Source: Escherichia phage W143
Sequence record: MZ189262.1
Length of the DNA: 64,000 bases
Strand: one strand, 5' to 3'
Of the stretch, positions 38,539 to 42,636 are shown in pieces; positions within the stretch are counted from its first letter, which is position 1, and every line of letters starts with the position of its first letter. The position numbers and the translations under genes are program-made. Under the pieces are notes generated by a model. The model was not told the origin of the DNA. It was given only the letters and a program-made list of their open reading frames with translations, and did no database searches.

Positions 38539-39399
38539 TTACACCGCCATTTTTCCTTTAATAGGAGGGTGTGATTCGTAACCTTTAAGAACGAAATCTT
38601 TAGGCCTGAGTTTAAGAATGTATTCCAATTGTTCCTTAGTAGAAAGATAGCGGAATTTATAAGGCAATCCGCCTATTACCAGTTCACAAAGCTCTTTAGG
38701 TTCACGACGCAAAATTTCTTTACATTGTTCTACGTGATTCATATAGATATGAGTATTACCACCAGAAAATATCAAATCTCCTGGAATAAGATTACACATC
38801 TTAGCTACAATATGAACCAACGCAGCATATGATGCAATGTTGAATGGCAAGCCCAAGAACACGTCAACACTTCTTTGATACCACTGCAAATCCAAATAGC
38901 CATTACGCACATTAAACTGATAAAACATATGACAAGGTGGTAATGCCATATATTTAAGTTCAGCTGGATTCCACGCCGACACAATTTGTCGCCTATCATT
39001 TGGTAGTTTTTTAATACAATCAACAACTTCTATAATTTGGTCTACACCGCCAAAATCACGCCATTGTTTTCCATAAATTGGACCAAGTTCACCGCTATGA
39101 TATCCTAAATCTTTTGCTTGATTTTCGTAATTTTCATCCCAGACTGTTTTGCCTTGAATTAATGAATCATGCTGAATTAATCGTAAATCATTTACGTTAG
39201 TACTTCCTGACAAAAACCATATTAGCTCAGCAATACAAGCTTTCCAGGCGAGCTTCTTAGTCGTTACTGCAGGAAAACCTTTAGTTAAATCCCAGCGTAA
39301 TTTAGTACCGAACAAAGCAATTGTTCCTGTGCCTGTTCGGTCATCGGTTTCATAGCCATTTTCAAAAATGTCTTTAATTAAATCTTGGTATTGTTTCAT
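38539..39399 (-). CDS. td: thymidylate synthase, uninterrupted
   Basis: 286 aa contiguous ORF (MKQYQDLIKDIFENGYETDDRTGTGT...) with active-site region ALPPCHMFYQF; full-length TS without an intron. Confidence 0.97.
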   Translation of the reverse strand: MKQYQDLIKDIFENGYETDDRTGTGTIALFGTKLRWDLTKGFPAVTTKKLAWKACIAELIWFLSGSTNVNDLRLIQHDSLIQGKTVWDENYENQAKDLGYHSGELGPIYGKQWRDFGGVDQIIEVVDCIKKLPNDRRQIVSAWNPAELKYMALPPCHMFYQFNVRNGYLDLQWYQRSVDVFLGLPFNIASYAALVHIVAKMCNLIPGDLIFSGGNTHIYMNHVEQCKEILRREPKELCELVIGGLPYKFRYLSTKEQLEYILKLRPKDFVLKGYESHPPIKGKMAV

Positions 39400-39443
39400 T
39401 TAGTACCTTATATAAATTATAATACATTTTATGAAGCTAATAA

Positions 39444-39791
39444 TCAATACGGTTTAGCATCAAATTTTCTTTCGATTTCAGGAGTGAAATATAATTCTTT
39501 ACCACGTTTGGAAAAACGACCAATAATATGATAATTATTCTCATCAAACGTGATATTGCCAATATCCATAGCTTTCAACCAAATATCGATATTTCTATCC
39601 AGCTTTATATCAAAATTCCAATACGGAGAACTATTACCAAAAATACTACAAGCGGATTCAGTGAAACAACTGCTATAAATTTTGTCTTTAGGAACTACTA
39701 ATTGATAGACGCCTTTAATAAACTGAGGACCCTGCCATTTTGGTTGTTTCGCGTCTTTTTCTAATAGAATAGGGTAATAATTAAAGTTCAT
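39444..39791 (-). CDS. hypothetical protein, 115 aa, between frd and td
   Basis: ORF MNFNYYPILLEKDAKQPKWQGPQFIKGVYQL... from ATG 39791; ORF-track start is GTG at 39803; 20 nt downstream of frd stop. Confidence 0.6.
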   Translation of the reverse strand: MNFNYYPILLEKDAKQPKWQGPQFIKGVYQLVVPKDKIYSSCFTESACSIFGNSSPYWNFDIKLDRNIDIWLKAMDIGNITFDENNYHIIGRFSKRGKELYFTPEIERKFDAKPY

Positions 39792-39811
39792 ATTTTCCGC
39801 CACGCGTTATT

Positions 39812-40638
<827 letters not shown>

Positions 40639-40648
40639 ATTATTTTCC

Positions 40649-40891
40649 TTAAACAGACTTTTTCACAATTTTCCAATCAGCTTTAAACTGTTCAACATCA
40701 GAATGGTAAATCCAAAACCCTGCGCTTTCTCCATCCTCATAAAGAGGGCATCCATCGCATTCATCTTCCCATCCCATATCACGCAAAAGAAGTTCAGCTT
40801 TTTCAACAAGTTCAGAATCTTTACCGATGATATTAAAATACCATTTACCTCTAACTTCTGAATCTTTGATGCTCTGGCGTTGTAATCTCAT
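40649..40891 (-). CDS. frd.2: hypothetical protein (frd.2 region)
   Basis: 80-aa ORF with early promoter GTTTAC-N18-TACTAT upstream. Confidence 0.65.
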   Translation of the reverse strand: MRLQRQSIKDSEVRGKWYFNIIGKDSELVEKAELLLRDMGWEDECDGCPLYEDGESAGFWIYHSDVEQFKADWKIVKKSV

Positions 40892-41727: not shown

Positions 41728-42636
41728 TTAAAGGTCATTCAAAAGGTCATCCAGGTCCGTGTCATCAGCACTAGATGAACTGCCAGAGCTTGAGCTCATA
41801 AAATCATCTTCAGTTTTTGTTTTGAAGTCATCAACATTGAATGCATCCAAATCATCAGCAACTTTATCAGCTTTCTTAGCAGCAGTTGCTGCGGCACCAC
41901 CCATAGCAGCAGTTCCCATAACTTGACTGAACTTAGTGCTCAGTTCTTCAAACGATTTGAATTTATCTTTAGAAGTCATTTCAGAAAGGTCAACCATTTG
42001 TTCGAACAGTTCTTTCTGGAAAGATTCATCATCAATGTTTGGAATCGCAGATTGATTCAGGAATTTAGATTCGTCGTAGTTACTAAAACCAGAAACTTGT
42101 TTAACTTTCAGTACAAAGTTAGCACCTTCCCATGGACAAGTTACATCAACCGGAGTTTCGCCCATTTCAACATCAACTGCAATCATTGCATTGATTTTAT
42201 CCCAGATTTTTTTACCGAAACGGTATTTAAATACTTTACCTTCATTTTCTGGAGCAGCTGGGTCTTTTACTACAAGAATGTTCGCCCAGTAAGAAGTTTT
42301 ACGTTTAACAAGACCGTACTCTTTATTGTCAGTGTTGTACAAATCATTTTTACTGATGTACTGACATACTGGACAAGAATCGTAATCACCGTAGGTAGAT
42401 GAGCATGTTTCAATATACCATTTACCATTTTTCTTGAAACCGTGATTTACAAGAAGTGCGAATGGTGCTTGTTCATCATTTTTAGACGGAAGAAAACGAA
42501 TTACTGCTTGACCGTTACCCGCATTATCGAGTTTCAGTTTCCACTCGCCTTTATCTTCAGAAGAAAAACCACCTTTATTTCCAGCCAGTTTAGCCATTTG
42601 TGCAGCGAGTTCAGCAGTAGATTTACGTTTAAACAT
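41728..42636 (-). CDS. 32: single-stranded DNA-binding protein gp32
   Basis: 302 aa, [22 protein letters not shown]...; Zn-binding Cys/His cluster; acidic C-terminal tail; matches T4 gp32. Confidence 0.97.

Follow-up and report, generated by a model that had tools for sequence, protein, structure and literature searches.

A conserved small gene between frd and td in Escherichia phage W143 and most of its T4-like relatives

The frd-td junction of T4 and of phage W143

One of the closest described systems is the frd/td gene pair of T4 (NC_000866), in which frd occupies 145109-145690 and td ends at 145112; the two genes share a 4-nt overlap, ATGA, with no ORF between them. In T2, T6, RB14, RB32, RB51 and Shfl2 the same slot is filled by a 'hypothetical protein' of PHROG family phrog_1928. 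Among the classic mutational mechanisms of T4 is deletion between short direct repeats. The seg and mob genes of T-even phages are likewise small, lie between conserved genes and are polymorphic among close relatives. The locus compared here with these systems was taken from a window of 64,000 nt of Escherichia phage W143 (sequence record MZ189262.1).

All genes around frd-td were placed on the minus strand by direct reading and from the ORF list (Table 1). A sequence-only reading of the window had described a 115-aa ORF with an ATG start between the two genes (here ORF-X), 20 nt after frd and 45 nt before td. The ORF was confirmed on the minus strand, and the gaps were measured at 20 nt and 44 nt respectively. 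The direct overlap of the T4 genes given in the same reading was also confirmed, and no ORF of similar size lies between frd and td in T4. The flanking genes are common to window and T4 at 93-98% amino acid identity (95% for frd). Unlike the T4 pair, the window pair is split by 416 nt with ORF-X and a 44-nt spacer, in which td has a ribosome-binding site of its own and a candidate promoter.

An alternative start of ORF-X, the GTG at 39803, would give a protein of 119 aa. In the aligned relatives this GTG is shifted to another frame (locus L011) or mutated (L012), whereas the N-terminus MNFNYY is conserved; the true start is the ATG.

Table 1. Coordinates of features at the frd-td locus of the window and of related genes in comparison loci (L numbers).
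Feature	Position	Strand	Description
gene 32	41728-42636	-	first in transcription order, then several small ORFs
frd.1/DUF5417	40649-40891	-	then 81-aa ORF, frd, ORF-X, td
81-aa ORF	40393-40638	-	between frd.1 and frd
frd, dihydrofolate reductase	39812-40393	-	193 aa; Pfam DHFR_1 PF00186, E=1.4e-19; immediately upstream of ORF-X
direct repeat, copy 2	39807-39818	-	TAAATGAAATAA on coding strand; spans frd stop codon
frd-ORF-X spacer	39792-39811	-	20 nt, AAATAACGCGTGGCGGAAAAT; direct reading
ORF-X	39444-39791	-	115-aa protein-coding gene, PHROG family phrog_1928, from ATG
candidate td promoter	39447-39419	-	sigma-70-like, TTGATT-17-TATTAT
ORF-X-td spacer	39400-39443	-	44 nt; holds td ribosome-binding site AAGG
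direct repeat, copy 1	39391-39402	-	TAAATGAAACAA on coding strand; spans td start codon
td, thymidylate synthase	38539-39399	-	286 aa, uninterrupted; Pfam Thymidylat_synt PF00303, E=3.8e-95; immediately downstream of ORF-X
nrdA.2/DUF5496, nrdA.1/DUF4326, nrdA		-	in this order after td
Yar_1 match	39689-39760	+	strand opposite ORF-X; almost certainly chance
B-type paralogs	L001 2817-3176; L004 2748-3143; L005 2814-3185; L006 2809-3156; L003 2059-2493		
68-aa phrog_9550 gene	L027 2558-2764; L028 2558-2764; L001 3173-3379; L004 3148-3354		
inconsistently named ORF-X orthologues	OR271596 (L002 2501-2818), MZ501067, MZ501066, OK272484, OK272476, MW749001, PQ571308		

Coding signal and family membership

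Selection on ORF-X was estimated by the Nei-Gojobori method against five orthologues and gave dN/dS values of 0.014-0.047; relative to loci L008 and L009 the differences comprised 9 nonsynonymous and 29-33 synonymous changes. The flanking genes gave higher values (0.12-0.21 for frd, 0.05-0.17 for td), and ORF-X is under stronger constraint than its enzymatic neighbours. The low ratio is decisive for coding. With the conservation in relatives it marks ORF-X as a real coding gene, a status that we regard as almost beyond doubt. That a non-coding spacer merely happens to be open here, which a weak Shine-Dalgarno sequence and the absence of a motif would fit, has a negligible probability: only 4/20,000 shuffles of the 412-nt block left 115 or more codons open, the protein is conserved down to 26% identity and its fold is predicted with confidence. 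The comparative data rule this reading out.

The protein is a plain member of phrog_1928, differing in no respect from the family, with a full-length match of residues 4-111 to positions 2-125 of the 126 in the profile (E=8.4e-36); the PHROG label is 'unknown function'. It is 100% identical in T2 and RB14 and is labeled RB32ORF229c in the RB14 and RB51 records; in hundreds of Tequatrovirus genomes, T2 and RB14 among them, the identical protein already bears the annotation 'hypothetical' (PHROG 1928). The GenBank names 'putative homing endonuclease', 'putative dihydrofolate reductase' and 'putative glucose-1-phosphate adenylyltransferase' given to some orthologues (Table 1) were unsupported by any search. 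No paper dealing with ORF-X was found in the literature searched.

Megablast of the junction with a 601-nt query returned 569 phage records, 354 of which cover the whole query including ORF-X. By tblastn with the protein, 580 phage records were matched, 362 at ≥90% identity and 218 below 60%, the latter from phages of Klebsiella, Enterobacter, Salmonella, Citrobacter, Serratia, Erwinia and Edwardsiella. Word-indexed protein searches gave few matches. When 1.84 billion representative proteins were searched exhaustively with an HMM, only 50 clusters matched, all of 37-148 aa and none fused to another domain. The family was absent from a scan of 185,579 bacterial and archaeal species genomes, and in metagenomes it was found on T4-like contigs only. 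The statement of the sequence-only reading that the protein has no recognisable motif held in each search made: there was no Pfam match for ORF-X and no consistent one across 64 family members, no PADLOC defence-family match for ORF-X or three relatives, and no PDB sequence-profile match, the best (E=0.1, a transthyretin-like protein) being judged noise.

Gene order across genera and the states of the frd-td slot

Loci were drawn from annotated phage records, IMG/VR and assemblies, and all were annotated with one script. In 25/25 non-T4 loci a member of the ORF-X family separates frd from td, lies on their strand and mostly has stop and start codons that overlap with its neighbours, and metagenomic contigs carry the family in the same slot. 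The genera covered were Tequatrovirus, Mosigvirus, Kanagawavirus, Jiaodavirus, Roskildevirus, Kagamiyamavirus and Gelderlandvirus, with further loci from Moon-like, Winklervirus-like and unclassified Klebsiella phages. Homologs at 26-47% identity occupy the slot in at least 8 other Tevenvirinae genera, in which identity to the window is 42-54% for frd and 73-80% for td, as expected of a faster-evolving gene inherited with its neighbours.

Most genera other than Tequatrovirus carry two tandem paralogs, a short A (the ORF-X orthologue) and a longer B. The B type has 115-148 aa and, after the conserved Trp, an insertion of ∼20 residues with the consensus ...W-A-L-x...P-T-I-x-x-Y-K-x-N-P..., and it also matches phrog_1928 (E=1.3e-35). 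A precedes B except in Roskildevirus (Cronus), in which B comes first; in Tequatrovirus, Mosigvirus and Jiaodavirus the A type stands without B.

No member of the family was found anywhere in the T4 genome (family HMM, best E=0.65). In pairwise alignment T4 corresponds to the window minus one block of exactly 416 nt. At either end of this block lies one copy of a 12-nt direct repeat (TAAATGAAAYAA; family D2); the copies are 11/12 identical, and their starts are 416 nt apart. Recombination within the repeat would reproduce the T4 sequence TATAAATGAAACAATACC, with its ATGA junction, exactly. Together, the 20-nt spacer and the end of frd contain ATGAAATAA, which has the look of a vestigial td start (ATGAAACAA), and an overlap of the T4 type, ATGA, is also present in NHEP29, there between frd and ORF-X. 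Because the 416-nt difference is bounded by a direct repeat, the T4 overlap looks like a deletion between the 12-nt repeats, a mechanism that we infer from the junction sequences. The reverse event, an insertion in the Tequatrovirus lineage with duplication of the 12-mer, is less probable: the gene would have had to land at the very position that it already occupies in all other genera. Since the same slot is filled in all 25 non-T4 loci, ORF-X is very probably ancestral and was lost by T4, the overlap being a derived minority state.

The frequency of the junction types was estimated from a T4-junction search in which 60 rows were sampled evenly down the ranking. The majority state was the ORF-X allele, seen as two pieces ∼416 nt apart (about 350-360 records). 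The empty T4-type junction, one contiguous piece, was found in 4/60 rows (T4, G28 and SG1 among them); subtraction gave 381-354=27 records, or ∼30 of roughly 520-570 (∼5-6%). T4 is the outlier at frd-td, and its much-cited overlap appears to be secondary and confined to that small share of sequenced relatives; the gene in the window represents the common, ancestral state. In ∼14/60 rows only the frd end matched, and this group carries an unrelated ORF of 68 aa encoding a basic protein (phrog_9550, E=1.3e-45), seen in Shinka and YUEEL01, which overlaps both neighbours (ATGA with frd, TAATG with td).

The 68-aa protein was present at ≥90% identity in 135 records (tblastn; Tequatrovirus, Dhakavirus) and is missing from both the window and T4. 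At 69-81% identity it lies directly upstream of td, after A and B, in Entb_45 and Klebsiella phage Biddle, and two metagenomic contigs have ORFs of comparable size (64-69 aa) at that position. Homologs at 40-43% identity occur in Phapecoctavirus. The most parsimonious reading of these arrangements would be an ancestral frd-A-B-phrog_9550-td array followed by differential loss, in which the T2-like and T6-like phages and the window kept A only, the Shinka group kept the 68-aa gene only, and T4 kept none.

In the sequence-only reading ORF-X was an inserted gene at a typical site for accessory or anti-defence cargo. The variability of the site stands, as the slot has three alleles in Tequatrovirus; the gene itself, however, is ancestral, and it is T4 that has changed state. 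A recently acquired gene countering host immunity, for example by nucleotide-pool targeting, would fit this polymorphism, the small size, early expression and dispensability of the gene (T4 has no copy), its GC content of 31.6% against 36-38% for the neighbours, a dS below that of the flanks that suggests exchange among phages, and a 12-nt repeat that could be a target-site duplication. It is nevertheless improbable: in at least 9 genera the family fills the same slot and diverges in step with its neighbours, it occurs in T4-like phages only and never in another context or fused, it gave no defence-related match and was linked by none of the searches made to a defence or anti-defence family, and the strong purifying selection is the opposite of an arms-race signature. 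What this evidence makes unlikely is the recent insertion; an anti-defence function as such is improbable but compatible with it.

ORF-X shares ∼94% amino acid identity with the window copy in L008 (NHEP29) and L009 (OLB35, Mosigvirus), with dS of 0.7-0.9. The flanks diverge more, with 57% identity for frd in L008 and 82-83% for td in both loci (dS 1.5-1.7); against L008 the dS values are 0.70 for ORF-X, 2.6 for frd and 1.7 for td. As the dS of ORF-X lies below that of its flanks, the comparison suggests a mosaic, with a recent recombinational exchange of the ORF-X segment between the Tequatrovirus and Mosigvirus lineages.

Co-occurrence with the td intron was examined with a chimeric query of ORF-X, the T4 td intron and I-TevI. 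ORF-X and intron were found together in ∼79 records (e.g. T6, IME340), the intron only in ∼120 (T4) and ORF-X only in ∼270 (T2, window). The intron seems enriched among genomes without ORF-X, the counts being rough and phylogenetically non-independent. Hitch-hiking of the T4 deletion with the td intron/I-TevI was rejected, the link not being strict in view of the records that carry both.

The presence of ORF-X independently of the intron also bears on a reading of the gene as a free-standing homing endonuclease or degenerate remnant, an annotation ('putative homing endonuclease') that it has in the records of ValerieMcCarty04, FriedrichZschokke and FriedrichMiescher. Such genes typically lie between conserved T-even genes, and the slot is polymorphic. 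This reading is very improbable, since no GIY-YIG, HNH, LAGLIDADG or other nuclease domain was detected in 64 members (the sole nuclease-like match, HNH_repeat in one member, was non-significant at E=0.097), no His, Cys or acidic residues are conserved, the aligned members have only 95-148 aa, and the predicted model is unlike a nuclease. Unlike seg and mob genes, ORF-X has no nuclease motif, is much smaller, holds a fixed ancestral position across genera and is under strong purifying selection; motif, size and evolutionary behaviour together effectively refute a homing endonuclease.

The window td is intron-less and aligns to T4 exons 1 and 2. At the T4 intron site ∼27 nt (td nt ∼526-552) gave no blastn alignment to the T4 exons, the stretches on either side being 94% and 91% identical to T4; the unaligned nucleotides could reflect divergence at the I-TevI target site.

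Predicted protein, expression signals and possible function

Structure prediction, which the sequence-only reading had proposed as a check, was performed with AlphaFold2. The model reached a pLDDT of 71 with an 18-sequence alignment, and a confident model was obtained with 64 family members (pLDDT 91.9, pTM 0.84). Its elements are, in order, E6-12, E27-34, an irregular segment, E62-64, H68-76, E80-82 and a hairpin E86-96/E99-104. Invariant or near-invariant positions are W19, G27, Y29, G91, F93, K95 and G97, and the C-terminal hairpin thus bears the motif G-[R]-F-x-K-x-G. The alignment of 64 members shows no conserved acidic, His, Cys or Ser residue, and an enzyme is therefore unlikely. The median pI of the aligned members is 8.5, some being acidic. 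ORF-X is best explained as a mildly basic protein of ∼13 kDa, predicted to be non-enzymatic and to consist of a beta-barrel and one helix.

In a Foldseek search of BFVD all matches were to uncharacterised T4-like phage proteins, and the predicted fold matched no solved structure. The order of strands and helix is compatible with an OB-fold (a five-stranded barrel with a helix between strands 3 and 4), and ORF-X could then be a single-stranded nucleic-acid binder, acting as a post-transcriptional regulator of td/frd mRNA or as an ssDNA factor near gene 32. We consider this rather unlikely; comparison with OB-fold domains of S1/RRP40, HIN, RPA/Teb1 and the RecO N-terminal domain was made, and no significant similarity to solved OB domains was found.

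A weak Shine-Dalgarno-like GGCGGA lies in the frd-ORF-X spacer, 4-5 nt before the ATG. This 20-nt spacer is conserved in the T2-type loci L010-L013; NHEP29 is without it, the frd stop and ORF-X start overlapping there as ATGA. The 44-nt ORF-X-td spacer is likewise conserved in L010-L013 and is wholly missing from T4. Because ORF-X shares the strand of frd, follows it by 20 nt and has stop/start overlaps (ATGA or longer) in relatives, it is inferred to be transcribed and translated together with DHFR and TS.

The sigma-70-like td promoter (Table 1) matches 9/12 consensus positions, and its first hexamer extends 4 nt beyond the 44-nt spacer, into the region of the ORF-X stop codon. Reading by eye also gave a MotA-box-like TTAGCTTCA in the same spacer, 10 nt ahead of a TATAAT. 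A promoter and terminator scan showed no excess of promoter-like sites in this region over shuffled sequence, and the td promoter therefore stays a candidate only. The sole match in an Rfam scan was to Yar_1, a region of a Drosophila lncRNA, and at 25.1 bits (E=0.021) it fell below the gathering score of 50.

Taken as a whole, the locus is best explained, with moderate confidence, by a constrained ancestral gene that was lost in T4 and encodes a binding protein. ORF-X is very probably an ancestral resident of the frd-td segment, within the prereplicative nucleotide-metabolism cluster of enterobacterial T4-like phages, and is dispensable in the laboratory, because T4 has no copy. It probably acts by binding a macromolecular partner. 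The partner that we favour, though with low confidence, is a component of the phage dNTP-synthesis/replication machinery (DHFR, TS, gp32) or single-stranded nucleic acid. On a broader proposal, which is speculative and improbable, ORF-X would form, with B and the 68-aa protein of other genera, an accessory module of the thymidylate cycle that is new in structure and so far unrecognised. The module might be a scaffold or regulator that links DHFR with TS, or both enzymes with the dNTP-synthetase complex or gp32. If true, it would have been overlooked because T4, the phage in which that complex was defined, deleted all of it.

The finding is largely ordinary, in that it adds no new class of system and settles no open question. 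ORF-X is a tightly constrained, structurally unmatched conserved hypothetical protein within the thymidylate gene pair of most relatives, and a reasonable, non-urgent target for functional and structural study.

A second small gene that T4 is without was observed near frd. The stop of the 81-aa ORF overlaps the frd start, and the T4 genome has only a 71-nt gap at this position. The ORF has no Pfam match and belongs to phrog_3183 (E=2.3e-43); L009, L011 and L012 carry it at 98-99% identity, and L010 and L013 lack it.
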